Assembly (NCBI GenBank): GCA_965219455.1
Contig: OZ244744.1
Coordinates: 2,208,001-2,272,000 of the forward strand
Source of the DNA: Candidatus Latescibacterota bacterium
GTDB lineage: Bacteria > Latescibacterota > UBA2968 > GCA-2709665
Direction: 5' to 3'
Length of the DNA stretch: 64,000 nucleotides
Part shown: piece after piece, positions 11,610-28,327 of the stretch
Numbering within the stretch: the first letter of the stretch is position 1
Layout of the letters: each line of letters starts with the position of its first letter
Position numbers and translations under genes: made by a program
The notes under the pieces: model-generated
Databases searched by the model: none
Told to the model about the DNA's origin: nothing
Seen by the model: only the letters and a program-made list of their open reading frames with translations

Positions 11610-12341
11610 ATGTCCAGGCTCGAAGGAAAAGTCGCGTTGGTAACCGGCGGAAACCAGGGTATCGGGAAAGGAATCGCGCGGGCACTGGCCAAAGAGGGCG
11701 CGAATCTGGTGTTGACCGCCCGAACGGTGGAGACACTGGAATCGGCAGCGGAAGAGATCAGGGCGGAGGGCGTGGAGGCGCTGGTCGCTCCCGCGGACGT
11801 CACCGACGAATTGCAGGTCGAGGCTGTGTTCGCCCAAACGATGGACCGGTTCGGGAGGGTGGATGTCCTGGTGAACAATGCGGCGGCTTTTGACGGGGGA
11901 CCTATCGACGAACTATCCGCATCGGCCTGGGATTGGGCGATGGCGGTGAATCTGCGCGGACCCTTTTTGTGCACGCGGGCGGCGTTTCGCATCATGAAGG
12001 AACAGGGCGGAGGCCGGATAATAAATATAGGCAGCATTTCCGCGCAGCGGGTTCGTCCGAATTCCGCGCCCTACAGCACGAGCAAATTCGGCATCACGGG
12101 CCTTACGCATGCCACGGCGCTGGACGGCCGGGACTACGGTATTGCCTGCTCCTGCCTGCATCCCGGCAATACCCTGGTGGAACGGCGCCAGGAATCCAAC
12201 GTGCCCACGGACGAGGAACCAATGATGACGGTGGATGAATTGGCGCAGGCCGCGGTAACTATGGCCACGCTGCCGCTTCACGTCAACATGCTGGAGGCAA
12301 TCGTTTTGCCCGTAGGGCAGCTGTACGTTGGGAGAGGATGA
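11610..12341 (+). CDS. Short-chain dehydrogenase/reductase
   Basis: TGGNQGIG, NNA and YSTSK motifs. Confidence 0.93.
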   Translation: MSRLEGKVALVTGGNQGIGKGIARALAKEGANLVLTARTVETLESAAEEIRAEGVEALVAPADVTDELQVEAVFAQTMDRFGRVDVLVNNAAAFDGGPIDELSASAWDWAMAVNLRGPFLCTRAAFRIMKEQGGGRIINIGSISAQRVRPNSAPYSTSKFGITGLTHATALDGRDYGIACSCLHPGNTLVERRQESNVPTDEEPMMTVDELAQAAVTMATLPLHVNMLEAIVLPVGQLYVGRG

Positions 12342-12501
12342 ATGGATATCGGCATGTATCCCGACCTACCTGCATCCGAAACCCGGCGCCGGCCACAGGC
12401 GATCACAGGAAGGGGAAGCGGCTGTATCGGGAATCGAGTCCGCGAGTGTGTGATGGCTGAGTTTTAGGCGCCGCCGGATTTTTTCAAATCGAGGAATTTT
12501 C

Positions 12502-12530
12502 TTGACACTCGCGGTATGATTGTTTAATGT
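12502..12530 (+). promoter_or_regulatory. Sigma70 promoter of the aromatic amino acid operon leader
   Basis: TTGACA (12502-12507)-17 nt-TAATGT (12525-12530). Confidence 0.65.
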
Positions 12531-12616
12531 TACACCGTCCCTAGTTGGTGCGGCTATTCGGCGAAAACCGGCGCCGGTAATAGGTCGACAGGGGCTTGGA
12601 ACAAGGGGGATCGAAC

Positions 12617-12724
12617 GTGACGGATCATGGACAGTACGGGTTTTCCTGGCGCGGGTATTTTTATCGCTCCTACCGGTGGTATTACCGGGAGGTCTCGGAA
12701 CGTCATGTCTGCCCACGCGAATAA
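12617..12724 (+). CDS. Aromatic-rich attenuator leader peptide, 35 aa: MTDHGQYGFSWRGYFYRSYRWYYREVSERHVCPRE
   Basis: SD-like AAGGGGGA (12603-12610) 6 nt before GTG; 10 of codons 7-23 are Tyr, Phe or Trp; lies just before a terminator upstream of trpE. Confidence 0.85.
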   Translation: MTDHGQYGFSWRGYFYRSYRWYYREVSERHVCPRE

Positions 12725-12747
12725 GCCGTTGACAGAGTTGGAAACTT

Positions 12748-12778
12748 AGCCGTGGGCGTCTGCTCACGGTTTTTTTTT
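12748..12778 (+). terminator. Attenuator (intrinsic terminator)
   Basis: Stem-loop AGCCGTGGGC-GTCT-GCTCACGGTT with a T9 run; its left arm CGTGGGC is also complementary to GCCCACG at 12711-12717. Confidence 0.85.
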
Positions 12779-12925
12779 ATCCCGTCGAAACAGAACGCCA
12801 GTGAGACGTTAAAGCGTCAATCCCGCCGGCTGGCTGCCTGTCTCCGGATGCAGGACAATCGCTCGTCCGGCACAAACGGACGCGGAAGTTCGATGCGCGA
12901 ATTCTGATATATATTTCGAAGTCAG

Positions 12926-14416
12926 GTGAAATTCGTGAGTACACCCGATTTGAAGGCGTTGAAAACGCTGGCTGAAGGCCGGGGGGTGGTTCCGATTTCC
13001 AGGGAAATCCTCGGGGATACGGAAACCCCGGTGTCCGCCTATCTGAAGCTGCGGCCCCGGAGTCCCTACAGCTTTCTTTTCGAGAGCGTGGAAGGGGGAG
13101 AGAAGATCGGGCGCTATTCTTTCCTGGGAGTGGAGCCCTTTCTTGCGTTTCGGTCGTGGAAATCCCGGATAGAGGTGGAGGATTTGAAGCAGGGCGACGT
13201 TCGGGTATATGAAGGGTCACCCATCGCCGAGCTCAGGCGGCTGCTGAGAAAATACCGTTCAGCGCAGTTGGAGGGACTGCCCAGGTTTACCGGAGGGGCT
13301 GTAGGTTACGTGGGCTACGATGCAATCCGGTTGGTTGAAAATATCCCCGACCGCACGCGCGACGACCACGGTTTGCCGGACATCGTGCTGCTTTTCTACG
13401 ATACGCTTCTTGGCTTCGACAACATTCGGCAGAAGATCCACCTGATTTCCAACGTGCATACCTCCGGAGATATTGAAGACAATTACCGGGAGGCGGAGGC
13501 GCGAATCGATGCGCTGGAAGGTGCCTTGCGCGCGCCGATTCCCACGACCTGCGTTCCGGAAAGAGCGCCCCGACGCCGGGCGTGCGACATCCGGTCGAAC
13601 ACGGAGCGGTCAGTCTATCTGGACAAGGTGCGGCGCTGCAAGGAATATATCGTGGCAGGCGATATTTTTCAGGTCGTACTTTCGCAGCGCTTCGAGACGG
13701 AGATAACCGTCGGGTCACTGGACATTTACCGTGCGCTTCGAACGGTGAATCCGTCTCCATATATGTTCCATCTGGATTTGAAGGACGTGCGGCTTGTCGG
13801 CGCGTCGCCGGAGCTGCTGGTTCGGGTCGAGAACGGCGTTGTGCAGGTGCGTCCGATTGCGGGCACACGGTGGAGAGGGGCTACGGAAGAGGAGGATTCC
13901 GCTCTCGAAGCGGATCTGCTGGCAGACGAAAAGGAACGTGCGGAGCACATTATGCTTCTGGACCTGGGCCGGAATGACGTGGGGCGGGTATCCCGTTACG
14001 ATACGGTACGCGTAACGGAACAGATGGCGATTGAGCGCTATTCTCATGTGATGCATATTGTGTCGAATGTTCAAGGGCGCCTCAAAGATGGCGTGGATGC
14101 TCTGGATGCGCTTTATGCCTGTTATCCGGCAGGCACGGTTTCCGGCGCGCCCAAGATCCGCGCCATGGAAATTATCGACGAACTGGAGCCGACCCGGCGT
14201 GGACCGTACTCGGGGGCCGTGGGCTATATTGATTTTTCGGGCAATATGGATACGTGCATTGCCATTCGTACGATGGTGTTGCTGGGCAAGAAAGCCTACG
14301 TTCAGGCCGGTGGGGGAATTGTGTTCGATTCCGTGCCGGAGAACGAGCACCAGGAAACGATGAATAAGGCGAAGGCGCTGTTCCAGGCCGTGGAATTGGC
14401 GGAAGGTACGGTGTAG
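12926..14416 (+). CDS. trpE: Anthranilate synthase component I
   Basis: [33 protein letters not shown] and [10 protein letters not shown] motifs. Confidence 0.96.
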
Positions 14417-14466
14417 CATCTAGGGATATATCCTGCCACTCTTCAACGATCACGACCCACATTCTT

Positions 14467-15030
14467 ATGATTCTGGTAATCGACAATTACGATTCGTTCA
14501 CGTACAATCTGGTTCAGTATCTGGGCGAGTTGGGTGCGCGGATAGAGGTGTTTCGGAACGATCAGATCGGGCTGGACCAGATCGGCGCGTACCGACCTGA
14601 GAAGATGGTGATTTCGCCCGGGCCATGTACGCCGAACGAGGCGGGAATCTCCGTGGATCTGGTCCGGCGGTTTAGCGGAGAGATTCCGATGCTGGGCGTC
14701 TGTCTGGGGCATCAGTGCATCGGACAGGCCTTCGGCGGCACCGTCGTGAGGGCTCCGGCGATTCTACACGGGAAAGTGTCCGAGATTCATCACGACGGAC
14801 GTTCGATTTTCAGGGGGATGTCACAGCCCTTTATCGCCACGCGATACCATTCCCTGATTGTCGAACGGGACAGCCTGCCGGACTGCCTCGAGGTTACCGC
14901 GCAGACACACGACGGAACAATAATGGGGTTGCGGCACAGGGAGTATCCGGTTGAGGGCGTGCAGTTTCATCCGGAGTCAATTCTGACGGCTGAGGGCAAA
15001 GTGTTGTTGAAAAATTTCCTGGATGGTTGA
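14467..15030 (+). CDS. trpG: Anthranilate synthase glutamine amidotransferase component II
   Basis: [22 protein letters not shown] and QFHPES motifs. Confidence 0.95.
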
Positions 15031-15085
15031 ATTCGGGGATCGAAAGGCTGGACCGGATCTCTGTTTACGGGTTGGGGAGACGGCT

Positions 15086-16105
15086 ATGGCGATACAGGAT
15101 GCGATTGCGAAGCTGATTGAGGGACAGGACCTGACACGTGACCAGATGATCGGGACGATGGACCAGATTATGTCGGGGGAGGCGACGGACGCGCAGATCG
15201 GTGGGTTTCTGGTGGCTCTGCGTGTCAAGGGGGAGACAGTTGAGGAGATCGCGGGCGCCGCGGAGGTGATGCGGGAGAAGGCGACCCGGGTCGTGACGCG
15301 ACACACCACGGTGGTCGATACATGCGGCACGGGGGGCGATGGGTCGGGAACGTTCAATATATCGACGGCGGCAGCGTTTGTCGTGGCCGGCGCTGGCCTG
15401 TGTGTGGCCAAACATGGTAACCGCGCGGCAACCAGCCTTTGTGGAAGTGCGGATGTCTTGAAGGAACTGGGGGTAAATATCGAAGCGGCGCCGGGGACGG
15501 TGGGGCAGTGTCTGGATGAGGTGGGCATCGGGTTCCTGTTTGCTCCTGCCCTGCATGGCGCCATGAAATATGCGATTGGACCCAGACGCGAGGTCGGCGT
15601 GCGTACGATTTTCAACGCGCTGGGCCCACTGACCAATCCGGCTGGCGCAACCCGACACCTGATCGGGGTATATAGTCGATCGCTGACTGACCGGCTGGCC
15701 GAGGTGTTGCAAACATTGCAATCGGAACGCGCGTTTGTGGTACACGGGCTGGACGGGCTGGATGAGATCACCACGACCGGACCAACGCAGGTGAGCGAGT
15801 TGAAGAATGGGACCGTGTCCACGTATGAGATCAGGCCGGAGGACCTGGGCATCGCCAGGGCGACAGCAGGTGATCTGGCAGGTGGCAACGCCGAGACCAA
15901 TGCGGCGATCCTGCGCAGGGTGTTGCATGGTGAGCCCGGTCCGCGGCTGGATATTGTCCTGCTGAATGCGGCAGCCGCCATCGTTGCGGGTGGCGCCGCG
16001 GATGACCTGTCGGCGGGATTGGAACTGGCCAGGGAGACCGTGGATTCGGGGCGGGCGATTGATAAGCTGGAAAAACTGAAACTCGTCGCGAACGAGGGCA
16101 GTTGA
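15086..16105 (+). CDS. trpD: Anthranilate phosphoribosyltransferase
   Basis: DTCGTGGDG, NIST, KHGNR and GLDE motifs; start at MAIQDA after GGAGA. Confidence 0.96.
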   Translation: MAIQDAIAKLIEGQDLTRDQMIGTMDQIMSGEATDAQIGGFLVALRVKGETVEEIAGAAEVMREKATRVVTRHTTVVDTCGTGGDGSGTFNISTAAAFVVAGAGLCVAKHGNRAATSLCGSADVLKELGVNIEAAPGTVGQCLDEVGIGFLFAPALHGAMKYAIGPRREVGVRTIFNALGPLTNPAGATRHLIGVYSRSLTDRLAEVLQTLQSERAFVVHGLDGLDEITTTGPTQVSELKNGTVSTYEIRPEDLGIARATAGDLAGGNAETNAAILRRVLHGEPGPRLDIVLLNAAAAIVAGGAADDLSAGLELARETVDSGRAIDKLEKLKLVANEGS

Positions 16106-16192
16106 CACCGGGCAATTTCGTCGCTCACGCCCCGAGCGTACCCCTTGAACGGGAAAATTGGAGGTCGCCCGGCCGAAACGAAGATGGGGAGT

Positions 16193-16984
16193 ATGGCTAC
16201 GATCCTCGATGAGATCATCGCATATAAGCGGCGCGTGGTGGCTGCGGCAAAACAACGGGTCTCCCCCGAGGTGTTACAGAAGCGGGCGGACCTGGTCCGT
16301 GAGCCGGGCTCGCTGATGGAAAGCCTGACTGTCGCGGAGGATATCGCGCTGATCGCGGAGATAAAAAAGGCGTCTCCGTCAAAAGGGGTGATCAGGGAAA
16401 ATTTCGATCCGGTGGAAATCGGTCGGGCTTACGAGGAAAACGGCGCGGCGGCAATTTCCGTGCTGACGGACGTGAAGTATTTTCAGGGCTCCGACGACAG
16501 TCTGACGGCCGTAAGCGAAGCCGTGGAATTGCCGGTACTCCGGAAGGATTTCGTGGTTGATCCTTATCAGATCCATGAAGCCAGGACAATCGGGGCGTCT
16601 GCGGTTCTGCTCATTGTTTCAGCGCTCTCGTTTCGTGAATTGGCAGGGATGCTCGCCGTTTGCAGGGAGTCGAAACTGGGCGCACTGGTAGAAGTGCATA
16701 CCAGAGAGGAATCGAGGATTGCGCTGGATGCTGGAGCGGATCTGCTGGGAGTGAATAACCGCGACTTGAAGACGTTTGAAACAGACCTGCGAACCACGTT
16801 CGATCTGATTGAACATCTACCGGCAGAACTGGTAATTGTAAGCGAGAGCGGCATTGAGACCCGGGACCATGTGGTCCGCTTAAGGGATGCGGGCGTGGAT
16901 GCGGTGCTGGTCGGGGAACATCTGATGCGTCATCCTGATGTCGGTCGAAAGCTTCGAGCGCTGTTGGGCAAGGAAGGCGGCTGA
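16193..16984 (+). CDS. trpC: Indole-3-glycerol phosphate synthase
   Basis: IAEIKKASPSKG, LRKDF, VEVH, GVNNRDL and SESGI motifs. Start approximate. Confidence 0.96.
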   Translation: MATILDEIIAYKRRVVAAAKQRVSPEVLQKRADLVREPGSLMESLTVAEDIALIAEIKKASPSKGVIRENFDPVEIGRAYEENGAAAISVLTDVKYFQGSDDSLTAVSEAVELPVLRKDFVVDPYQIHEARTIGASAVLLIVSALSFRELAGMLAVCRESKLGALVEVHTREESRIALDAGADLLGVNNRDLKTFETDLRTTFDLIEHLPAELVIVSESGIETRDHVVRLRDAGVDAVLVGEHLMRHPDVGRKLRALLGKEGG

Positions 16985-16992
16985 TCCAAACC

Positions 16993-17625
16993 ATGGTTCG
17001 GGTGAAGATTTGCGGCATCACGAATCCGGAGGATGCGCTCTTTGCGGTTGCCCAGGGCGTTGACGCCCTGGGGTTCATCTTTTATGAACCCAGCCCGCGT
17101 TACGTGCATCCTGGCCACGTGAGCGAGATCGTGTCGGCGTTGCCGCCGTTTGTCACGCCAGTTGGCGTTTTCGTGAACAAGGTCAGGGAGGATATCCTGG
17201 CAATCGTGCGTTCGACGGGGCTTCGGGCGGTCCAATTGCACGGCGACGAGACGCCGGCTGATTGCCAGGGGTATCCTTTTCCGGTCATCCGTGCGTTGCG
17301 GGTCGGCGAGGGATTCAACCCTGCGTCGCTGAGCGTTTATCCCGTAAACACGTTTCTGCTGGATACGGCCAAGAAAGGATGGTACGGCGGCACGGGAGAA
17401 ACGTTCGACTGGCGGGTTGCAAGGGCGGCTTCGGCACACGGTCGGATCATTCTATCGGGGGGGATCGATCCGTCAAACGTGGCGGAGGCGGTCCGGACGG
17501 TGAATCCATATGCAGTCGACTGCGGCAGTGGCGTTGAGGCCGCGCCTGGCAGGAAAGACCACAACAGAATCGCCGAATTCTTCGGCGCGCTTCGCTCCGT
17601 AACAAGTGTTCTGCCCCGGAAATAG
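16993..17625 (+). CDS. trpF: Phosphoribosylanthranilate isomerase
   Basis: VKICGIT, QLHGDE, GGTGETFDW and SGVE motifs; the last codons come from a MITE A end. Confidence 0.96.
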   Translation: MVRVKICGITNPEDALFAVAQGVDALGFIFYEPSPRYVHPGHVSEIVSALPPFVTPVGVFVNKVREDILAIVRSTGLRAVQLHGDETPADCQGYPFPVIRALRVGEGFNPASLSVYPVNTFLLDTAKKGWYGGTGETFDWRVARAASAHGRIILSGGIDPSNVAEAVRTVNPYAVDCGSGVEAAPGRKDHNRIAEFFGALRSVTSVLPRK

Positions 17626-17880
17626 ATTGCCGAAATTCGGCCGACCAGAAGCAGCAAGAACAGCTATCAGCGATCAGCCGTCAGCTTGAAGCAAAAACCC
17701 AATCAGTTGACGTCAGCGCCGTGAAAAGCCAGCACCCGGAACGGGCGCAATGAGGGCACTTCTACAGGCTCGGTGTCAACATTTCCACAAACTTGCTTCG
17801 GCAAGCCGTTTCGACAGGCTCGACGTAGAAAACGCACCCGGCGAACGCAAAGCGGATAGATTGCCGAAATCTGCGACAAT
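17607..17880. repeat. MITE A left end plus degraded REP-like and heptamer repeats
   Basis: TGTTCTGCCCCGGAAATAGATTGCCGAAATTCGGCCGAC; TCAGCNN x3; CTTCTACAGGCTC and TTTCGACAGGCTC; a second ATAGATTGCCGAAAT near 17857. Confidence 0.6.
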
Positions 17881-17927: not shown

Positions 17928-19190
17928 GTGGACATCTTGAAAGATCTGGAGTTCCGGGGGTATGTTTTTCAGGTAACGGACGCCAGCGGACTCACGGCGC
18001 GGCTCGCCCGGGGGCCGATAACGCTCTATTCGGGGTTCGACCCCACGGCAGCCAGCTTGCACGTCGGCAACCTGATACCCATTCTGGGACTGCGGCGGTT
18101 CCAGTTGGCCGGGCATCATGCAATCGGCCTTATCGGAGGAGGTACCGGTTTGATTGGCGATCCGAGCGGAAGTAAGGAAGAACGCCGATTGAACCCGCCC
18201 GAGGTGATCGCGGCATATACCGAGAAGCTGACAGAGCAACTGGCTAAATTTCTGGATTTCGATACAAGAACCAATCCCGCCCAGGTGGTCAGCAATATGG
18301 GCTGGCTCTCCGAGCTCAAGGCAATTGACTTCCTGAGGGACGCGGGCAAGCATTTCCCCATGGGTTATATGCTGGCGAAAGAGTCCGTGGCTTCCCGTCT
18401 GGAATCCGGAATATCCTTCACCGAGTTCAGCTATATGGTCATTCAGGCATATGATTTCATGGAGTTGTTTCAAACGTGCGGATGCGAGTTGCAAATTGGC
18501 GGGAGCGATCAATGGGGCAATATTACAGCGGGAATCGAGTTGATCCGACGTCGTCTGGGCGGACAGGCACACGGTCTGACGTTTCCACTGCTGCAGAAAG
18601 CCGACGGTTCCAAGTTCGGCAAGACGGCCTCCGGTACTGTCTGGCTGGACGCGAGAAAGACAACGCCCTATCAGTTCTACCAGCACTGGATCAATACGGA
18701 TGACCGGGACGTCGTGAGCTTTCTGAAGCTGTTTACGTTTCTCTCGGAGGATGAGATCCGAAATCTGGAAATGGAGGTGTCACAACGCCCCGAGAAGCGC
18801 GAGGCACAGCGGGTTCTGGCCGACGAGGTAACCACATTCGTACATGACAGTACCGCAACAGACCGGGCGCGACGGATTTCCGAGGCATTGTTTTACGGGG
18901 ATCTGCGAGATCTGAGTGCACAAGAGATAGAGGAAGGGTTCAGCGACGTGCCATCTCATGCGCTCAATGGCGCGACTGAAGTGGGTTTGATTGGCTTGTT
19001 GGTCAATGTCCGCATTTCATCTTCCATGCGCCAGGCGCGCGAAGATATCAAGTCCGGCGCGATACATATCAATGGCCGGCGTTGCACGGATATGGGCCGG
19101 ATCCTTGAACCTTCCGAGAGACTCGCCGGAAAATACCTGGTGGTTCGCCGGGGCAAACGCCGCTACTTTCTGGTGCGCTGGAACAATTGA
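17928..19190 (+). CDS. tyrS: Tyrosine--tRNA ligase
   Basis: YSGFDPTAASLHVGN, QIGGSDQWGN and KFGKT motifs; C-terminal S4-like domain. Confidence 0.97.
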   Translation: MDILKDLEFRGYVFQVTDASGLTARLARGPITLYSGFDPTAASLHVGNLIPILGLRRFQLAGHHAIGLIGGGTGLIGDPSGSKEERRLNPPEVIAAYTEKLTEQLAKFLDFDTRTNPAQVVSNMGWLSELKAIDFLRDAGKHFPMGYMLAKESVASRLESGISFTEFSYMVIQAYDFMELFQTCGCELQIGGSDQWGNITAGIELIRRRLGGQAHGLTFPLLQKADGSKFGKTASGTVWLDARKTTPYQFYQHWINTDDRDVVSFLKLFTFLSEDEIRNLEMEVSQRPEKREAQRVLADEVTTFVHDSTATDRARRISEALFYGDLRDLSAQEIEEGFSDVPSHALNGATEVGLIGLLVNVRISSSMRQAREDIKSGAIHINGRRCTDMGRILEPSERLAGKYLVVRRGKRRYFLVRWNN

Positions 19191-19286: not shown

Positions 19287-20264
19287 ATGAAAGCACCATG
19301 GATTACCTATCGGCCGGAACTCAAGGTACTTGATTGTACGATTCGAGACGGCGGATTGATGAATGACCATCATTTTACCGATGATTTCGTGAAGGCAGCT
19401 TACGAAACCTGCGTTGAAGCAGGGGTCGATTATATGGAAATCGGGTACCGAAACTCCAAGGAGATGTTCCCAAAAGGACAATTCGGACCCTTTCGACACA
19501 GTGACGAAGAAGATATCCGCAAGATTGCGGGCGATCACGACCCTGAAACGACCGGCCTGAAGCTCGCCATTATGGCCGATGCGGGCAAGAGCGATTGGGC
19601 GGAAGACATCCTGCCGGCCAGCGAGAGCGTGGTCAGCATGGTGCGCGTAGCCTGCTATGTCGAGCAGATCCCTGAAACCGTCGAAATGCTTTGCGACGCC
19701 CATGAGAAAGGTTATGAAACCAGCTGTAACATTATGGCCATTTCGACCGTGCAGGAGGTCGAGATCGACCAGGCGCTGGAAGTACTGATAAAAACCCCGG
19801 TTGGAACAATATGTGTTGTAGATAGTTTTGGCGCATTGTACCGCGAGCAGGTGGATATGCTCATTCGGAAGTATATGGAAGCCGTCAGCGGAACGGGAAA
19901 AGAAGTGGGCATTCACGCGCACAACAACCAGCAACTGGCGTTCGCCAATACCCTGGAAGCGCTTATTCTGGGCGCCAACCGGGTTGATGCCACGGTGGAC
20001 GGACTTGGCCGCGGCGCAGGAAATTGCCCGCTGGAATTGCTGCTCGGTTTCTTGCGCAATCCCAAATTCAAGATTCGACCTGTCTACAAGCTATTGGAAG
20101 ACCATTTTGTCAAATTGCGCGGTGAATTGACGTGGGGGGCCCTCATTCCGTACAACATCACGGGTCAGCACAACCAGCATCCCCGCTCGGCAATGGCGCT
20201 CCTGGACGGGGACGACCGCGATCGGTATCTGACATTCTACGATCAGGTGATGAGGGATATCTAG
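19287..20264 (+). CDS. DRE-TIM metallolyase (HMGL-like / 4-hydroxy-2-oxovalerate aldolase-like)
   Basis: LDCTIRDGG, VVDSFG, HAHNN and GLGRGAGN motifs. Confidence 0.85.
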   Translation: MKAPWITYRPELKVLDCTIRDGGLMNDHHFTDDFVKAAYETCVEAGVDYMEIGYRNSKEMFPKGQFGPFRHSDEEDIRKIAGDHDPETTGLKLAIMADAGKSDWAEDILPASESVVSMVRVACYVEQIPETVEMLCDAHEKGYETSCNIMAISTVQEVEIDQALEVLIKTPVGTICVVDSFGALYREQVDMLIRKYMEAVSGTGKEVGIHAHNNQQLAFANTLEALILGANRVDATVDGLGRGAGNCPLELLLGFLRNPKFKIRPVYKLLEDHFVKLRGELTWGALIPYNITGQHNQHPRSAMALLDGDDRDRYLTFYDQVMRDI

Positions 20265-20364: not shown

Positions 20365-21585
20365 ATGGAAATTATGGCACTTCCCAAAGCAGATGAATCC
20401 ACCGGCACAACACCCGACTCCGGGGGGCATTTCGGACCCTACGGTGGGCGCTACGTGCCGGAAACGCTGATGCCCTTGTTGGAGGACTTGGAGGCAGCCT
20501 ACCGCGATGCGAAGGACCGTCCGGATTTCAAGGAAGAACTGGACCGGTATCTCAGGGAATTTGTGGGAAGGCCGACGTCACTTTATTTTGCGCAGCGGCT
20601 GACCGCCGAACTGGGTGGAGCCAGAATCTATTTGAAGCGGGAGGACCTCGCGCACACCGGCGCGCACAAGATAAACAACACGATGGGCCAGATTCTCCTT
20701 GCCAAGCGAATGGGCAAAACGCGGATCATCGCGGAAACGGGCGCAGGTCAACACGGTGTGGCGACAGCAACCGTGGCGGCGATGTTCGGAATGGACTGCG
20801 AGATTTACATGGGCACCGAAGACATGGACCGTCAGGCGTTGAATGTGTTTCGAATGCGGCTCCTGGGCGCGAATGTAACGGGGGTGGATTCGGGCAGCAG
20901 GACTCTGAAGGATGCGATCAACGAAGCCATCCGGGATTGGGTGACGAATGTGGAAGATACGTTTTATATATTCGGATCCGTCCTGGGACCGCATCCGTAT
21001 CCGATGATCGTGCGCGATTTTCAGCGGGTGATCGGGGTGGAAACGCGCGAACAGATCCTGCAAGCCGAAGGCCGCTTGCCGGACTGTCTGATCGCATGCG
21101 TCGGCGGCGGCAGCAATTCCATCGGGCTGTTTCACGCCTTTTTGAATGACACGGACGTGCGGATGGTTGGTGTCGAAGCGGGAGGGCATGGCATTGCCTC
21201 CGGCGACCATGCGGCGCGATTTCAGGGCGGGGATCTGGGCGTACTGCACGGGGCAAGGATTTACCTCCTGCAGGACGAGGACGGGCAGATCGCGCTGACC
21301 CATTCGGTGTCCGCGGGCCTGGATTATTCGGGTGTGGGGCCCGAGCACTGTCATCTGCGGGATGCGGGTCGGATCGAGTACGTCTATGCCACCGACGACG
21401 AAGCCCTGAAGGCTTTCCAGCAGTTGAGTCGCACTGAGGGTATAATTCCCGCACTGGAAAGCGCACACGCGATCGCGCACGTGTCCAGAGCGGCGCCCGA
21501 ACTGGGCAAGGATGCCGTAATCGTGGCGAATCTTTCCGGCCGGGGCGATAAAGACGTGCAGCAGGCGGCAAAATACCTGCATTAG
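20365..21585 (+). CDS. trpB: Tryptophan synthase beta chain
   Basis: [24 protein letters not shown] and GGGSN motifs. Confidence 0.98.
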
Positions 21586-21638
21586 GCAGTATTGCACCGT
21601 TCGTTTTCAGGTCGGAATCGAAGAATGGGGTCGATCGG

Positions 21639-22451
21639 ATGACAAGAATCGGGAAACGGTTCGAGGCGTTGAAAGAAGCGCGCAGGACCGGATTTGTGGC
21701 CTACATCACCGCGGGAGATCCGGACCTGGCAATCACCCGCAAGCTGGTGCCGGAACTGGAACGGCGCGGGGTGGACATTCTCGAGTTGGGCGTGCCGTTC
21801 TCCGATCCACTGGCGGATGGACCGGAGATCCAGCGGGCATCGCAGCGCGCCCTGCGACATCGGGTGTCAATCGGTGACGTGCTGGATCTGGTGGCAGACC
21901 TGCGGCGGGAGACGGAGATACCGATTGTGCTGTTTACGTATTTCAATCCGATGCATCGTTTTGGTCTGAAACGACTTGTCGACCGGGCGGCCGAAGCGGG
22001 GGTGGACGGCATTCTGGCGCTGGATCTTCCGCCCGAGGAGGCGGCGGAGTACAAGTGTCTGATGTCGCAACAGGGACTGGATACGATTTTTTTGATTGCG
22101 CCAACGAGCCGTGAGGATCGTATTCAACGGATTGCGGCGCATTCCAGCGGGTTTGTGTATTACGTGTCACGCACGGGCGTAACGGGGGAACGGAAAAGCC
22201 TGGAGGAGACACTTGGCGCCAAGGTGGCGACCATCCGTCGCTACACGTCGCAACCGGTTGCGGTGGGATTCGGTATTTCGACGCCCGAACATACCAGGGA
22301 GGTTGCAGTTTATGCGGATGCAGTCGTCGTTGGCAGCGCGATCGTGCGGCGAATTGCGGAGCGGCAGGGCGACCCGGATCTCGTTTCACACATCGGAGTA
22401 TTTGTGGAAGAACTCGTGCAACCGTTGAAGGGAGCACCCGATGGATCTTGA
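21639..22451 (+). CDS. trpA: Tryptophan synthase alpha chain
   Basis: ELGVPFSDPLADGPEIQ, GVTG and VGFGI motifs. Confidence 0.97.
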   Translation: MTRIGKRFEALKEARRTGFVAYITAGDPDLAITRKLVPELERRGVDILELGVPFSDPLADGPEIQRASQRALRHRVSIGDVLDLVADLRRETEIPIVLFTYFNPMHRFGLKRLVDRAAEAGVDGILALDLPPEEAAEYKCLMSQQGLDTIFLIAPTSREDRIQRIAAHSSGFVYYVSRTGVTGERKSLEETLGAKVATIRRYTSQPVAVGFGISTPEHTREVAVYADAVVVGSAIVRRIAERQGDPDLVSHIGVFVEELVQPLKGAPDGS

Positions 22452-22773
22452 AGACTGGCGAAAGGAAATCGACGTCCTGAATCAACAACTGCTGGAGCTT
22501 CTCAATCGACGAGCCGAATGTGCACTTGAGATTGGCAGGATTAAACAGGCAATCGAGCAACCGATTTATGCGCCGGAACGGGAGACGTCGATCCTGAACC
22601 GAATCCGTAAACTGAACACGGGGCCCCTGACCGACGAAGCGGTGCATCGGATATTTCAGCAGATAATCGATGAGTCCAGGCGCCTGGAACAGGAGCATGG
22701 CGACCGGGAAACGGGGGCACAAAACCCCTCTGAATCCGTTCGTGAAACCGGCCGAACGACTAAACCGGATTGA
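22441..22773 (+). CDS. Monofunctional AroQ chorismate mutase
   Basis: LEDWRKEID...LLNRR...IGRIK...IYAPERE...IIDESRRLEQ pattern. Confidence 0.92.
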   Translation: MDLEDWRKEIDVLNQQLLELLNRRAECALEIGRIKQAIEQPIYAPERETSILNRIRKLNTGPLTDEAVHRIFQQIIDESRRLEQEHGDRETGAQNPSESVRETGRTTKPD

Positions 22774-22802: not shown

Positions 22803-23831
22803 ATGGCGTTCAGAAAGATCCTGAAGATACCCACCCCGGAAGCCGTACTGGAGAAGATGTCGCTTCCGAAGAAGCTGAAGGCTGTAAAGGATGAACGCGA
22901 CGCGGAAATCAGGGATATTTTCGCGCGGAGGAGCGATAAGTTTCTGCTGGTGATCGGCCCCTGTTCGGCGCACAACGAAGATGCCGTATGTGAATACGTG
23001 TCCCGGCTGGCGAAACTGCAGGAGGCCGTCCGGGAAAAACTGGTTCTGGTGCCGCGCATTTATACCAACAAACCCCGAACAACCGGCGAGGGGTACAAGG
23101 GGATGGGGCATCAGCCGGACCCGCGGAAGGCACCGGATATTTCCGAGGGGATCTATGCGGTTCGTCAGATGCATATCCGGGCGGTCCGGGAGTCCCATCT
23201 GACGGCCGCCGACGAAATGCTGTACCCGGGCAATCTGCCGTATGTCGAGGATCTGCTGAGTTATATAGCCGTGGGCGCACGGTCGGTGGAGAATCAACAG
23301 CACCGCTTGACCTGTAGCGGCGTCGGCGTGCCGGTCGGAATGAAGAACCCGACGGGAGGAGATCTTTCGGTCATGCTGAACGCGATTCACGCCTCACAGA
23401 TTCCACACGTCTTCATTTATAACGGCTGGGAGGTGAGTACCGATGGCAATCCCCTGGCACACGCCGTGCTTCGGGGCGCCGTGGATGTGACCGGGCGCAG
23501 TATTCCGAACTATCACTTTGAAGACCTCATACACGTTGCGGAACTCTATCGCCAGCGGCCGCTTGCCAATGCCGCAATCGTTGTGGATACGAATCACAAT
23601 AATTCCGGCAAACAGTTCAGCGAACAACCCAGGATCGGGTTGGAGGTGATACGCAGCCGGCAGAGTTCGGGATTCTTGAACGATATGATCCGTGGGTTGA
23701 TGGTGGAAAGTTTTCTGGTTGAGGGCACACAGAACGTTAATGACGGCGTGTACGGCAAATCCATTACCGATCCGTGCCTGGGGTGGAAGGATTCCGAGGT
23801 GTTTGTGAAGGAACTGGCGGAAAAAATATGA
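22803..23831 (+). CDS. aroF: DAHP synthase, class I-alpha
   Basis: IGPCS, KPRTTGEGYKG, GARS, GMKN and YGKSITDPC motifs. Confidence 0.93.
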   Translation: MAFRKILKIPTPEAVLEKMSLPKKLKAVKDERDAEIRDIFARRSDKFLLVIGPCSAHNEDAVCEYVSRLAKLQEAVREKLVLVPRIYTNKPRTTGEGYKGMGHQPDPRKAPDISEGIYAVRQMHIRAVRESHLTAADEMLYPGNLPYVEDLLSYIAVGARSVENQQHRLTCSGVGVPVGMKNPTGGDLSVMLNAIHASQIPHVFIYNGWEVSTDGNPLAHAVLRGAVDVTGRSIPNYHFEDLIHVAELYRQRPLANAAIVVDTNHNNSGKQFSEQPRIGLEVIRSRQSSGFLNDMIRGLMVESFLVEGTQNVNDGVYGKSITDPCLGWKDSEVFVKELAEKI

Positions 23832-23909
23832 GAGCGGCCGGGCTCCGGATTCAGGAGTGAATCGGAACGTTTTCCTGACGCTCTTGCCTGTTCTTCCGAG
23901 GATGAAGGT

Positions 23910-25022
23910 ATGGCGAATGATCCTCCGTTTGCGCGTGAGACGATTGCTATTGTGGGTGTTGGGTTGATCGGCGGATCTCTTGGCGTGGCACTCAAGGGTC
24001 TGGGCATCGGGCGAAGCATCGTTGGCGTCAGCAGGCAGGAGACACTGGATGCAGCCGGCGAATTGAATGTAATTGACGCGGGCTATCGCTATGAAGAGCT
24101 GGCAGCGGGAATTGCCGAAGCGGCGCTGGTTTTCCTGTGTACTCCCATTGTACGTATTCTGGACCTGCTGCCGCGGGTGCTGGGGGCGGCGCGGAAGGGT
24201 GCGGTCGTGACCGATGTGGGCAGCACCAAGCACGCGATTGTTTCCGCGGCGACGGCGCATCAACGGGATGGCGTGTGCTTTGTGGGAGGGCATCCGATGG
24301 CCGGGTCCGAACATCGCGGGGTAAGCGCGGCGGATCCTTTCCTGTTTCAGAACGCCATTTACGTATTGACGCCGTCGCCGGACACGCCCGATTTCGTGGT
24401 CGAAAAGCTCGCGCGCCTCGTGAGGGCGCTCGGGGCGAGACCCATGAGGATGACGCCTCAGGCACACGACAGGGCGGCGGCGGCGGTGAGCCATTTGCCG
24501 CAGATGATGGCCACAAGCCTGGTGTCCATGATCGGACGGATGACCGAGGCCGAAGGGTTGCCGATACGGATGGCGGCGGGTGGGTTTCGGGATCTGACAC
24601 GCATTGCATCCAGCCCGTATGAAATGTGGCGGGATATCTGCCATACAAACGGGGCCTCGATCCGTGAGATGATCGATCTCTATATTGAGTCGCTGGCAGC
24701 GATTCGCGGGGAAGTGGACCATGACGGTCTGGAGCAGGCATTTGTCTATGCGAATCGGGTACGGGGACAGATCCCGAAGGACTCCAAGGGGTTTTTGCAT
24801 CCCCTATACGAAATCCTCCTGGTGGCGGAAGACAGACCGGGCGTGATTGCCGACGTCGCTCAGACCCTGGCCGGAGAGAACATCAATATTAACGACATCG
24901 AGGTGTTGAATGTACGGGAGGGGGAAGGGGGCACCATCCGGATGGGGTTCGATTCACGTCCATGCGCGGAAGAGGCCGTAGGTGTGTTGGGGAAGGCGGG
25001 ATACAGCGTCAGGCTGAGATAG
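23910..25022 (+). CDS. tyrA: Prephenate/arogenate dehydrogenase with C-terminal ACT domain
   Basis: GVGLIGGS, DVGSTK, GGHPMAG, SHLP, GFRDLTRIA and DRPGVI (ACT) motifs. Confidence 0.94.
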   Translation: MANDPPFARETIAIVGVGLIGGSLGVALKGLGIGRSIVGVSRQETLDAAGELNVIDAGYRYEELAAGIAEAALVFLCTPIVRILDLLPRVLGAARKGAVVTDVGSTKHAIVSAATAHQRDGVCFVGGHPMAGSEHRGVSAADPFLFQNAIYVLTPSPDTPDFVVEKLARLVRALGARPMRMTPQAHDRAAAAVSHLPQMMATSLVSMIGRMTEAEGLPIRMAAGGFRDLTRIASSPYEMWRDICHTNGASIREMIDLYIESLAAIRGEVDHDGLEQAFVYANRVRGQIPKDSKGFLHPLYEILLVAEDRPGVIADVAQTLAGENININDIEVLNVREGEGGTIRMGFDSRPCAEEAVGVLGKAGYSVRLR

Positions 25023-25101
25023 ACGGAAGGATCCCGAACGGGAAACGGTTGAACGAGAGAGATTGCTGCCCGTCCTTTAGTGACTCCATTTTGAAGAAGG
25101 C

Positions 25102-26415
25102 GTGGTTTTGGAATTCGCGGGTTCGGTGATTTCCCGGGGCACGATCAGGCCCTCGCCAGGGCTTGTGGGGACATGCGACCTCCCGGGCGATGCCAACATG
25201 TCGATAATGGCCCTGGTGCTATCGTCCACGGCCGATGGAATCTCCCGGATTCACAGGTGTTCGCGACGACGCGACGTCGGGCGAGCCGTAGAATTGCTGT
25301 CGAAACTCGGGATTTCGGTCGGGTGGGACGGTGAGACCGCGACGGTGACCGGCGGCCGCTTCAGGGCGCCGGACGACGTGCTGCACGTGGATGGGTCCCC
25401 GGTTCTGTTTTCCTGTCTGGCGGGATTGCTGTCGAATGCGCCCTTTGTGACCAGACTCTCCGGAGTTCGGGCGGATGCCGACGTCGACAGGGTTTTCGGG
25501 GCGCTCCGCGCATTGGGCGCACAACTGGACATTCCGGCTGAGGATCGGACATCGGCAGGTGTGGGAGGGGGTAAGTTAACGCCCGGTTCCTACCGCGTCG
25601 GACTTCCGGATATGTTGGTGAAGTGTGTAATGCTTATGGCCGGGTTGGGTGTGGATGGTCCGGTTGAACTGTTGCAGGACACCCGTGGGGATGACGACCT
25701 GGAAGTGTTGCTGCAAGCAGCAGGATGCGGGCTGAAGAAGAGGCGCATGAAGGGCGCCGGCGGTCATCGATTGTTGATGGAAGGACCCGTACGGCTCCAT
25801 GGCGTTACCCATGAGTTGCCGGGTAGTTCGGACGCGGGGCTGTTTCTTGCTCTCGCTGCGGCAATGTTGAAACGGTCTGATGTGACGGTAACCCATTTCG
25901 GAATGGATTCGAGAAGCCGCAGGATCGTAGATATATTGCGGCGAATGAACGTATCTATGGATGTGGAGCAATACTGGACGAATTCCGGTTTTCCCGTACG
26001 ACGACTTCGGATCAGGGGGTCCGAATTGCGTGGTATAAAAATCTCGGGTGCGAATGCGAGACGCTTCAGGGACGTGCTCCCGCTCCTGGCAGTCGCGGGC
26101 GCGGTATCCCGGGGTGAAACGATTTTACGGGATGCCGAGGCGTTGAGGGACGGCCCGGTGGACTGTATTTCGGTAATGGTGGAAAACCTCAGGAAGATGC
26201 AGATTCAAGTTGGGGAGATGCCGGATGGGCTGGTTGTGAAGGGCGGGCAACTGCAGGGCGCCGAACTGGATGCTGCCGGCGACGCCCGTGTGTCAATGGC
26301 ACTCACGCTGGCAACGCTGGCGAGCGAAGGGGAAACCCTTGTAATGAACCCTGGGCCCGTGGATCAGATGCATCATGGGATCATGGAAAGATTGGCTACG
26401 GTTTTGGAGACGTAA
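25102..26415 (+). CDS. EPSP-synthase-fold protein lacking catalytic residues (AroA-like pseudoenzyme candidate)
   Basis: Collinear with class II AroA over 437 aa, but motifs read PGDANMSIMA, DGSPVLFS, PDMLVKC, RDGPVDCI and GDARVSM. Confidence 0.8.
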   Translation: MVLEFAGSVISRGTIRPSPGLVGTCDLPGDANMSIMALVLSSTADGISRIHRCSRRRDVGRAVELLSKLGISVGWDGETATVTGGRFRAPDDVLHVDGSPVLFSCLAGLLSNAPFVTRLSGVRADADVDRVFGALRALGAQLDIPAEDRTSAGVGGGKLTPGSYRVGLPDMLVKCVMLMAGLGVDGPVELLQDTRGDDDLEVLLQAAGCGLKKRRMKGAGGHRLLMEGPVRLHGVTHELPGSSDAGLFLALAAAMLKRSDVTVTHFGMDSRSRRIVDILRRMNVSMDVEQYWTNSGFPVRRLRIRGSELRGIKISGANARRFRDVLPLLAVAGAVSRGETILRDAEALRDGPVDCISVMVENLRKMQIQVGEMPDGLVVKGGQLQGAELDAAGDARVSMALTLATLASEGETLVMNPGPVDQMHHGIMERLATVLET

Positions 26416-26738: not shown

Positions 26739-27605
26739 TTGGGTATTGTGTCAACCACGCAGTTGCTGGGGGTGATAGGCGATCCGATTGCCCATTCGTT
26801 GTCGCCGGACATGCACAATGCGGCCATAAGCGTTCTTGAAGCAGACTACTGTTACGTTGCCTTTCACGTATTGCCGAATGGGGTTGAATCGGCGCTTCAG
26901 GGGATGCGCGCCTTGCAGATCCGGGGTTTGAACGTAACCCTTCCGCACAAGACTGCAGTGATGGCACACCTGGACCGGATTTCCGAAGAAGCACTGGCCG
27001 TGGGCGCGGTGAATACGATTTCTTTCAATGACGGCGAACTGGTCGGGCACAATACAGACGTGTACGGGTTGGCCACCGCGCTGGAGCGGACGGCCGGCCT
27101 CGCCGTGTTGCCGGAGCATTGCGTGATTCTCGGCGCGGGCGGCGTGGCGCGGGCGGCTGTTTATGCGCTGGCTACGCAAAATGAGGTGCGGCGGGTGAGC
27201 ATTCTGAATCGAACTGTAGGCCGGGCGGAAGCGCTTGCGCGTAATATGGAACGGATCACAGGCAAGACAATAGACGCGGGCGATCTGACGACAGACACCC
27301 AAATGAGGCGGTTCGCGGATGCCGGCCTCGTCGTGAATGGTACTTCGCTGGGGATGCACCCGAACGTAGAGCGGACGCCGCTTGCGGATACAGACACGAT
27401 ACACTCACAACTGGTGCTCTACGATACGGTTTTCAACCCGCTGGATACGCTGCTGATGCGGCAGTTTCGATCCGCGGGCGCGCTGGCTTTTGGAGGACTG
27501 GATATGCTTGTACACCAGGGTGCGCGTTCGTTTGCCATCTGGACGGGAGTCGAGCCGCCCGTCGACGTCATGAAGCAGGCGGTAATCGACCGGTTTCGGG
27601 CGTAG
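26739..27605 (+). CDS. aroE: Shikimate dehydrogenase
   Basis: HSLSP, NVTLPHK, GAVNT, NTD, GAGG and NRT motifs. Confidence 0.95.
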   Translation: MGIVSTTQLLGVIGDPIAHSLSPDMHNAAISVLEADYCYVAFHVLPNGVESALQGMRALQIRGLNVTLPHKTAVMAHLDRISEEALAVGAVNTISFNDGELVGHNTDVYGLATALERTAGLAVLPEHCVILGAGGVARAAVYALATQNEVRRVSILNRTVGRAEALARNMERITGKTIDAGDLTTDTQMRRFADAGLVVNGTSLGMHPNVERTPLADTDTIHSQLVLYDTVFNPLDTLLMRQFRSAGALAFGGLDMLVHQGARSFAIWTGVEPPVDVMKQAVIDRFRA

Positions 27606-27607
27606 CT

Positions 27608-28327
27608 GTGGTGAGGTCCGACCTACAGGAACGCCGGGCAAAACGGACTTTTGTGCGTCAGATGTTCGACGGCATAGCCGGTACGTACGATCTGTTGAAC
27701 CACCTGCTGAGCGCCGGCGTGGACATTGTCTGGCGGCGATGGACAGTAGACGCACTGGAATTGCAAGCCGGAGAGTGGATCCTGGACCTTGCAACGGGAA
27801 CGGGCGATTTGGGCCTCGAAGCGGCTGCGCGTGATTCGGGCGTGCGGGTTGTGGGCGCGGACCTGTCCCTACCGATGCTTCGGCTAGCAAACAAAAAACG
27901 GGATAGGGGATCCGGCCGACTGCTTCTCCTATGTGCAGACGCGGAGCGGCTGCCGTTTCCCGACGTGCAGTTTCATGCCGTAACGATTGGTTTCGGAGTA
28001 CGGAATTTTTCGGACTTGAACAATGGCCTTCAGGAGATACATCGGGTTTTACGCGCCGGAGGCCGGTTGGCAATTCTGGAGTTTTCCAGGCCCAGGGCGT
28101 TTCTATTACGCAGGATCTACTTTTTTTATTTCAAATTTATCCTGCCCGGCATCGGCCGGCTTGTTTCCCGGAATCCTCTGGCGTATCGGTATCTTTATGA
28201 GTCTGTAATGGGTTTTCCTGAGGGGGAAGCATTCCGAAGGCGTCTGACGCAGGCCGGTTTTGTCGAGGCGGTGGAACGCCGGTTGACCTTTGGGATTGCG
28301 ACCATCTATTTGGCTTCAAAACCGTAA
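27608..28327 (+). CDS. ubiE: Demethylmenaquinone / ubiquinone methyltransferase (UbiE/MenG)
   Basis: MFDGIA..YD..N..LS.G, LDLATGTGD, FGVRN and YLYESV motifs. Confidence 0.93.
   Translation: MVRSDLQERRAKRTFVRQMFDGIAGTYDLLNHLLSAGVDIVWRRWTVDALELQAGEWILDLATGTGDLGLEAAARDSGVRVVGADLSLPMLRLANKKRDRGSGRLLLLCADAERLPFPDVQFHAVTIGFGVRNFSDLNNGLQEIHRVLRAGGRLAILEFSRPRAFLLRRIYFFYFKFILPGIGRLVSRNPLAYRYLYESVMGFPEGEAFRRRLTQAGFVEAVERRLTFGIATIYLASKP

Follow-up and report, generated by a model that had tools for sequence, protein, structure and literature searches.

What controls the combined aromatic amino acid operon of a Candidatus Latescibacterota bacterium? We analysed a stretch of 64,000 nucleotides from its genome (contig OZ244744.1, positions 2,208,001 to 2,272,000 of the forward strand; hereafter the window), in which a leader region at positions 12502-12778, just upstream of trpE, carries a short open reading frame (ORF) rich in Tyr, Phe and Trp codons followed by an intrinsic terminator. 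We propose that this region is a classical ribosome-mediated attenuator of a ~17.6-kb, 16-gene operon, trpEGDCF-tyrS-(aldolase-like)-trpBA-aroQ-aroF-tyrA-aroA-aroE-ubiE and perhaps argS, a reading to which we assign a probability of about 0.7, and that the operon is very probably switched on when charged aromatic tRNAs run low. That the region is a leader peptide attenuator as such is well supported by comparison with related genomes and appears highly probable. Joint sensing of Tyr and Trp is likely, and the sensing of all three aromatic pools together by one leader is plausible.

Anatomy and composition of the leader

The region contains the following features, all on the + strand.

12502-12530, +: candidate sigma-70 promoter (TTGACA at 12502-12507, 17-nt spacer, TAATGT at 12525-12530)
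12603-12610, +: Shine-Dalgarno (SD) sequence AAGGGGGA, 6 nt 5' of the GTG start
12617-12724, +: leader ORF, small and unannotated; GTG start at 12617, 35 codons, TAA stop at 12722-12724
12635-12685, +: cluster of putative regulatory codons, leader codons 7-23
12648-12657, +: weak candidate for segment 1 (GGCGCGGGTA), a possible pairing partner of segment 2
12710-12717, +: segment 2 (TGCCCACG), predicted 5' strand of the antiterminator, ending 5 nt before the leader stop codon
12748-12757, +: segment 3, 5' arm of the terminator, also used by the predicted antiterminator
12762-12771, +: segment 4, 3' arm of the terminator
12770-12778, +: run of nine T, the expected release site
12926-14416, +: trpE (TIGR00564, 600 bits)

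An earlier reading made from this sequence alone had named a promoter, an SD sequence, a GTG-initiated ORF, a terminator and trpE, and each is present where that reading placed it. Its count of 6 Tyr, 2 Phe and 2 Trp within codons 7-23 of a 35-codon ORF is likewise correct, and the exact complementarity that it described between GCCCACG (12711-12717) and CGTGGGC (12751-12757) can be read directly in the sequence. Within the cluster, Tyr occupies codons 7, 14, 16, 19, 22 and 23, Phe codons 9 and 15, Trp codons 11 and 21, and Arg codons 12, 17 and 20. The terminator stem (12748-12771) comprises 10 pairs closed by a 4-nt loop and leads into the nine T, and the leader spans ~180 nt from the SD sequence to the T run.

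The density of aromatic codons is far above expectation. Measured against the composition of the operon's own 16 proteins, in which Trp, Tyr and Phe together make up 6.6% of residues, ten aromatic residues in 17 codons has P = 2e-8. Taken singly, Tyr (6/35, P = 3e-4) and Trp (2/35, P = 0.018) exceed the background; Arg, at 6/35 against 8.1%, does not do so significantly (P = 0.06). A six-frame scan of the complete 5.84-Mb genome for stop-to-stop segments of 12-90 codons returned 269 with at least seven aromatic residues per 15, of which six precede a terminator-like hairpin, and the trpE leader ranks first among these six with 9/15. An aromatic-rich leader before a terminator exceeds chance. 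The second-ranked candidate of the scan, a Trp-rich ORF at genome position 466725 on the minus strand, was rejected; it lies out of frame within an EPSP-synthase-family gene.

The promoter is plausible. It went uncalled in a consensus scan because its -10 hexamer, TAATGT, matches the consensus at three of six positions. In 13 of the 14 loci of the window's genus (all but L002) an ORF beginning MFNV, MFKV or MLNV starts at the promoter spot, and this shared start suggests, indirectly, that the sequence of the promoter region is kept within the genus. Between the putative transcription start and the SD sequence, the 5' untranslated region holds a strong predicted hairpin at 12553-12585.

Conservation of the leader

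If the sequence-only reading holds, orthologous trpE upstream regions should carry an aromatic-rich frame, and they do. Searching 41 related genomes for TrpE, we obtained 30 loci, one of which (L022) was dropped since it offered only ~140 nt upstream; the remaining 29 come from two families of one order, with TrpE proteins 69-93% identical. In all 29, a 30-35-codon ORF is enriched in Tyr, Phe, Trp and Arg. Its in-frame start lies 30-35 codons ahead of the stop and is preceded, in 27 of 29, by an SD-like purine motif at a distance of 4-16 nt; the ORF ends a few codons past a Cys-Pro or Met-Pro pair. The best 20-codon window of each leader holds 5-12 aromatic residues, and at least one Trp codon is kept in every leader of the order. 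A terminator with the same core lies ~25 nt past the leader stop in 29/29, and the stretch that opens 27 codons ahead of the stop and closes with the T run measures 137-143 nt throughout. Read by eye, the geometry across the order runs from the last aromatic codon through 19-24 nt to segment 2 and then at most 12 nt to the stop. Mean column identity across the 29 leader regions is 63%, and aromatic richness is kept across relatives while the exact codon positions shift. Within the genus, the aromatic consensus codons of 12 leaders are identical in 90 of 108 cells; five cells are synonymous, three encode another aromatic residue and ten a non-aromatic one.

The comparison extends beyond the order. 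Among 40 further trpE upstream regions from the class and phylum, 22 have a comparable leader and 18 do not, some of which may be misses; the criteria were a terminator, a distance to trpE of 90-280 nt and at least four aromatic residues per 12. In total, 51 of the 69 genomes that could be evaluated across the phylum yielded a leader. A wider locus search gave, among the matches listed, mostly distant TrpE genes, with a comparable leader only in L031-L033.

Terminator and predicted antiterminator

The terminator is supported both by its energy and by its evolution. Folded alone it reaches -16.0 kcal/mol (z -4.87), a value attained by 0 of 200 shuffles, and across the 29 relatives its 11 pairs are formed in 96.9% of cells, with compensatory changes in four pairs, a pattern seen in 0 of 500 shuffles. 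The alternative hairpin that would pair 12710-12717 with 12751-12758 has a comparable energy, -16.7 kcal/mol. Its core of four pairs is kept in 29/29 sequences of the order, among which no covariation was found; because this invariant core is uninformative by itself, we extended the sample to the class and the phylum. There, for 51 leaders in 26 sequence groups, the duplex energy between the leader 3' end and the terminator arm and loop averages -15.7 kcal/mol for cognate partners versus -12.0 kcal/mol when partners are swapped, a difference reached in 0 of 5000 permutations. This cognate-versus-swapped result is the main evidence that the predicted antiterminator is real. One antiterminator pair differs between groups, being C-G in the window's genus, U-G among members of the sister family and U-A in one genome less closely related.

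The sequence-only reading proposed a test for compensatory changes in both stems. They are present in the terminator, at four of 11 pairs; for the antiterminator no covariation was found within the order, and its support is the phylum-wide swap test. The attenuator geometry that the sequence-only reading described stands, in that the ORF with its SD sequence and start codon, the spacing between its stop and the terminator, the terminator hairpin and the duplex of leader 3' end and terminator arm are all kept or co-varying.

Proposed mechanism

We propose that transcription starts near 12537 and that a ribosome loads at the SD sequence and GTG (12603-12619). With ample charged tRNA-Tyr, tRNA-Trp and tRNA-Phe, the ribosome would reach the stop at 12722-12724, where its footprint would mask segment 2 (12710-12717). 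With segment 2 masked, the terminator (12748-12771) and T run would fold, and RNA polymerase would release the transcript before trpE. A ribosome stalled on an aromatic codon (12635-12685) would instead sit at least 24 nt upstream of segment 2, which would then be free to pair with 12751-12758 once this is made; the resulting antiterminator would block the terminator, and the operon would be read through. The sequence features with their conservation and covariation, the two alternative folds and the operon content are what the analysis shows; the translation of the leader, the stalling, the relevant amino acids and the extent of the transcript are inferred.

Stalling on any single codon class should suffice, and the leader should therefore follow 'OR' logic. 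Since Tyr codons dominate (six, beside two Trp and two Phe), we expect the strongest response to a shortage of charged tRNA-Tyr or tRNA-Trp and a weaker one to a shortage of charged tRNA-Phe.

Which amino acids are sensed?

Across the sampled genomes, leader codon composition goes with the genes that the operon contains: leaders are Trp-dominated where tyrS is lacking and dominated by Tyr and Phe where it is present. Mean counts in the last 30 codons of each leader are as follows.

Window genus (n=14): Trp 1.5, Tyr 5.0, Phe 1.9, Arg 6.7
Rest of the window's family (n=7): Trp 1.4, Tyr 4.1, Phe 3.0, Arg 4.3
Sister family (n=8): Trp 1.9, Tyr 4.9, Phe 3.9, Arg 4.8
Neighbouring family of the class (n=2): Trp 1, Tyr 4, Phe 4, Arg 3.5
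Large family of the class (n=14): Trp 3.1, Tyr 1.4, Phe 1.1, Arg 4.9
Other families (n=6): Trp 2.7, Tyr 1.2, Phe 1.7, Arg 3.0

In 10 of 11 mapped loci from the groups with Tyr-rich leaders, tyrS occupies the slot between trpF and trpB (8 of 9 in the order, and also in the neighbouring family); among the groups with Trp-rich leaders it is present in 0 of 10 mapped loci within the stretch fetched. In two lineages the slot is filled by TyrRS subtypes (L116 5023-6246 and L170 5190-6386) that are 31-35% identical to the window's TyrRS and score 350-380 bits with TIGR00234; distinct subtypes sharing the trpF-trpB slot in different lineages look like in-place synthetase replacement. Leaders of the sister family carry 3-5 Phe codons, and Phe sensing is likely there and weaker in the window's leader.

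Could the attenuator in practice serve as a Trp sensor, with Tyr and Phe codons that are tolerated filler or a means of tuning translation speed? Every one of the 29 leaders of the order retains Trp, and in the rest of the phylum Trp dominates the leaders, which have 2-4 Trp and 0-2 Tyr codons, so that Trp sensing is likely to be ancestral. The Phe count in the window's leader is also at background, and attenuation by the AroR leader of Corynebacterium glutamicum is reportedly unaffected by Tyr supply despite its Tyr codon (PMC11802643, in the part accessible to us). However, in the families with tyrS in the operon Trp codons fall to 1-2 and Tyr codons rise to 4-6, the six Tyr codons of the window's leader are far above background, and genus-level changes at the aromatic codons are mostly synonymous, to another aromatic residue or to a near neighbour. 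Trp21 is itself dispensable in five of 14 genus members, and any rarely charged codon in this part of the ORF should stall the ribosome equally. We consider a pure Trp sensor unlikely.

A broader possibility is a four-input sensor, in which the leader reads the charging of Tyr, Phe, Trp and Arg tRNAs and its codon make-up tracks the gene content of the operon. On this view a Trp-rich leader before trpEGDC-...-tyrA-aroA-aroE-argS would be ancestral; placement of tyrS between trpF and trpB would have been accompanied by a multiplication of Tyr and Phe codons and a dwindling of Trp codons, and the interspersed Arg codons would be a fourth input, matched to argS as the last gene of the cluster. 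Arg codons number 3-7 in the last 30 codons in every family; L178, which lacks argS in its mapped stretch, has two in its leader, but three leaders from argS-bearing families also have two. argS follows the aromatic cluster, past aroE or ubiE, in 13 of 21 mapped loci (L113-L117, L123, L170, L172-L175, L179 and L181), a count for which the stretch fetched was too short in two more loci of the order and one contig ended early; argS follows at only 14-40 nt in the large family of the class. We hold this four-input view to be possible and rather doubtful. If it is true, a single 35-codon ORF ties three biosynthetic branches and two synthetases to the charging state of four tRNAs.

Points against the proposal

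A number of results weigh against the attenuator proposed here or against its joint input, and we gather them at this point. The first concern structure. The stability of the window's antiterminator lies within the range of its shuffles (z -1.06). A 1:2 pause hairpin seemed attractive at first: candidate 1:2 helices were found in each clade, a GGCG-UGCC pairing in nearly invariant columns is predicted by RNAalifold for 27-29 of 29 sequences, and this segment 1:2 pairing is also present in the window's own fold. A shuffle control removed that support, as minimum-energy folding gives segment 2 an upstream partner in 19 of 29 loci versus 56% of shuffles, which is chance level; moreover, the window's codon CGC, synonymous to the CGT of other genus members, causes a mismatch in the candidate helix. 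With the 1:2 hairpin unproven, read-through is what one would expect of an untranslated leader. The whole-leader fold is no more stable than shuffles (z 0.27), and global stability is for this reason not counted as evidence.

The second group concerns translation and codon choice. Within the genus, the three codon positions have 11, 11 and 15 variable sites, and synonymous to non-synonymous variants number 14/31 in frame, compared with 11/35 and 9/37 for the two alternative frames. The codon-position signal is thus weak, and the case for translation of the leader rests on the kept frame, start and stop. Phe, at 2/35, does not exceed background in the window's leader (P = 0.34); Trp21 is missing in five of 14 genus members; and the AroR result cited above is a precedent for a Tyr codon that reportedly does not sense.

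Thirdly, the families that bear tyrS have the most similar TrpE proteins, so that the correlation between tyrS and codon make-up may, through kinship, reflect a single event. Synteny in the order is also imperfect: one of nine loci keeps only trpEGD, and another ends after trpA. Finally, a run search gave six RNA runs, all as assembled contigs that contain 7-14% of the sampled words per run, and four of them were compared with the window. In run X19 a 1606-nt contig of a close relative covers 12482-12738 at ~96% identity (11 differences in 257 nt) and stops 31 letters past 12738 in sequence unlike the window, which is not readable as an RNA end; trpE contigs in the same run come from relatives at 90-95% identity. 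Assembled contigs show neither RNA 3' ends nor levels, and no inference on expression is drawn from them.

Other explanations of the leader

TnaC is an arrest peptide, and the leader might likewise act through nascent-chain arrest near its stop, the signal then being a free aromatic amino acid and not tRNA charging. The Cys-Pro pair 3-4 codons before the stop in most leaders of the order, and a Trp-Arg pair that is kept, would fit such a role. Yet the Cys-Pro codons are segment 2 and change together with the terminator arm, so that RNA pairing explains them; residues outside the aromatic and Arg positions vary freely; and a ribosome arrested on the stop codon would cover segment 2, which promotes termination, an outcome (repression by abundance) that the simple model already reaches without arrest. 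We give arrest very little weight.

A switch that is independent of translation, whether T-box, riboswitch, TRAP-like or another RNA-binding protein, would make the ORF incidental. The 5' leader of ~240 nt ending in a terminator does have the size of a T-box leader, and the whole-leader fold shows that structure alone does not decide. Nevertheless, Rfam gives no match at E up to 1 in 12000-13400, and hence none to the Trp_leader, Phe_leader or T-box models, and its single match in the whole window at gathering score is a tRNA, with none in the leader. TRAP (mtrB, PF02081) was not found in the complete genome by a search that recovered the B. subtilis control, and neither was TrpR, whose positive control was likewise recovered. 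The ORF also keeps its frame, start, SD sequence, length and stop at the modest column identity noted above, and keeps its aromatic richness while its codons move. We consider such a switch most improbable.

A small trans-acting protein, beside or instead of cis attenuation, has been reported for the trp leader peptide TrpL in Sinorhizobium (accessible portions of PMC7298713 and PMC7968998) and is scarcely to be expected here, where the leader product has no Pfam or NCBIfam family match and the peptide shows little conservation beyond its regulatory codons and segment 2.

The operon and its genome

The genes downstream of the proposed attenuator, all on the + strand, are these.

12926-17625, +: trpE, trpG, trpD, trpC and trpF (NCBIfam equivalog matches)
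17928-19190, +: tyrS, tyrosine--tRNA ligase (TIGR00234, 390 bits; also Pfam)
19287-20264, +: HMGL-like aldolase-family gene, between tyrS and trpB
20365-22451, +: trpB and trpA
22441-22773, +: aroQ-type chorismate mutase (CM_2, PF01817, 88 bits)
22803-26415, +: DAHP synthase (aroF/G/H type), tyrA (prephenate dehydrogenase) and aroA
26739-28327, +: aroE (shikimate dehydrogenase) and a ubiE/menG methyltransferase
28555-30258, +: argS, arginine--tRNA ligase (TIGR00456, 479 bits), 228 nt past ubiE

These matches agree with the combined trp, tyr and shikimate operon of the sequence-only reading and add tyrS, the chorismate mutase, aroE, ubiE and probably argS to it. By these genes the operon provides Trp, Tyr and the shared chorismate/prephenate pathway and encodes TyrRS, in agreement with the codon cluster of the leader. 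Between 12400 and 30700 the + strand has no strong terminator other than the one at 12748, and no convincing terminator was found in the aroA-argS interval; co-transcription of argS with the aromatic operon is possible. The only prephenate dehydratase gene, pheA, lies outside the window, 80 kb from the operon (G000 C1 2140645-2141178), directly after another gene and with no leader or terminator before it. The Phe-specific step therefore appears to be outside the control of the leader.

Other attenuators were sought in the genome by two scans. Of the terminators with the same arms, only the one at trpE precedes a T run, and a crude genome scan for at least five of seven identical residues before a terminator found no His, Thr, Ile, Val, Phe or Trp leader. 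The scan's single Leu candidate is antisense to a CorC/HlyC-type gene and was rejected.

Relation to known attenuators

The trpL leader of E. coli has 14 codons. The window's leader resembles it in being a short, SD-led ORF before trpE whose regulatory codons lie upstream of a segment that can pair with the terminator arm (as set out in the available part of PMC11802643). In both, the stop codon lies near the pairing segment and an intrinsic terminator precedes trpE. In contrast to trpL, however, the window's leader has no match to the Rfam Trp_leader model and has 35 codons, with ten aromatic codons of three kinds as opposed to two Trp codons. Its 1:2 pause hairpin is unsupported, its genome has no detected TrpR, and its operon is far larger, with tyrS, tyr and shikimate genes.

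Multivalent leaders are known from the E. coli thr operon (Thr and Ile) and from ilvGMEDA and ilvBN (Ile, Leu and Val). As in these, the codons of several amino acids stand in one leader, so that shortage of any one would relieve termination. Unlike the thr and ilv leaders, which serve the aspartate and pyruvate families, the leader described here covers the three aromatic amino acids, and its operon carries an aminoacyl-tRNA synthetase.

The closest described case is aroR of C. glutamicum, a leader before aroF with the codons Phe-Tyr-Phe that responds to Phe and not to Tyr (Neshat et al. 2014, as reported in the accessible text of PMC11802643). Both leaders have mixed aromatic codons and attenuate an operon with a DAHP synthase. 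aroR, from another phylum, has three regulatory codons and none for Trp, whereas the window's leader has ten of three kinds; furthermore, aroR controls the aroF operon only, and the C. glutamicum trp operon has its own trpL. A second partial parallel is the pheST leader of E. coli, which attenuates an aminoacyl-tRNA synthetase operon (same source, same portion: PMC11802643). There too a synthetase stands under a leader rich in the codons of its own amino acid, as tyrS does here under Tyr codons, although pheST is a dedicated operon with a Phe-only leader and tyrS here lies inside a biosynthetic operon. Finally, the aromatic supraoperon of B. subtilis has its trp genes under the control of TRAP (PMC3064811, consulted in part). 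Like the operon of the window, it unites trp, tyr and shikimate genes in one large unit with attenuation before trpE. TRAP binds (G/U)AG repeats; in the window the predicted sensor is a translated ORF, and no TRAP gene was found in the genome.

According to the accessible part of a 2010 survey, leader peptide systems were at that date demonstrated in Proteobacteria and Actinobacteria alone, to which the survey added Firmicutes (PMC2965389). The parts of PMC4833913 and PMC2965389 available to us make no mention of tyrosine or aromatic leaders. Our full-text literature search returned no leader with all three aromatic codon types, of which other papers and supplements could hold cases, and no leader peptide attenuator described for the window's lineage. 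The novelty of a tri-aromatic leader, as raised by the sequence-only reading, is thus tempered: a mixed aromatic leader, AroR, was already known, and a leader of three types was not found in our literature search.

The mechanism proposed here is that of the textbooks, in a bacterial lineage that has been little studied. What appears new is the putative three-amino-acid input, the presence of synthetase genes inside the operon and a leader composition that shifts with operon content. If this is true, we have here a natural attenuator whose inputs were rewired through codon composition as genes joined the operon. Such a leader would be a compact sensor of all aromatic pools, and a possible part for strains that produce aromatic compounds; it would also supply an annotation rule for the unannotated small ORF in the sampled genomes of the phylum.

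Variation within the gene cluster

The trpF-tyrS gap is ~300 nt in the window's genome versus 19-43 nt in eight relatives. It contains a stretch, 17622-17870, bounded by two exact 15-nt direct repeats 234 nt apart, in which neither an ORF matching a family nor a + strand terminator was found; this stretch looks like a small insertion inside the operon. The HMGL-like gene was found only in the window's genus and in the sister family and is absent from the other genera of the window's family. Between the genus and the sister family it is 88-89% identical and its neighbours 57-83%, and this excess similarity, together with its patchy presence, suggests lateral transfer.

In the sister family, extra genes also lie between the trp genes: the trpG-trpD gap is ~1.8 kb in L112, L118 and L119, and a trpD-trpC gap of ~1.1 kb in L111 and L112 holds extra genes. 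In the family with Trp-rich leaders, six loci (L123, L172-L175 and L181) have a gene in a trpC-aroQ interval of ~1.0-1.3 kb, where the window has trpF-tyrS-trpBA. This gene has no match to any protein of the window's operon and might be a different type of DAHP synthase. A TonB-domain protein is also encoded in the window.

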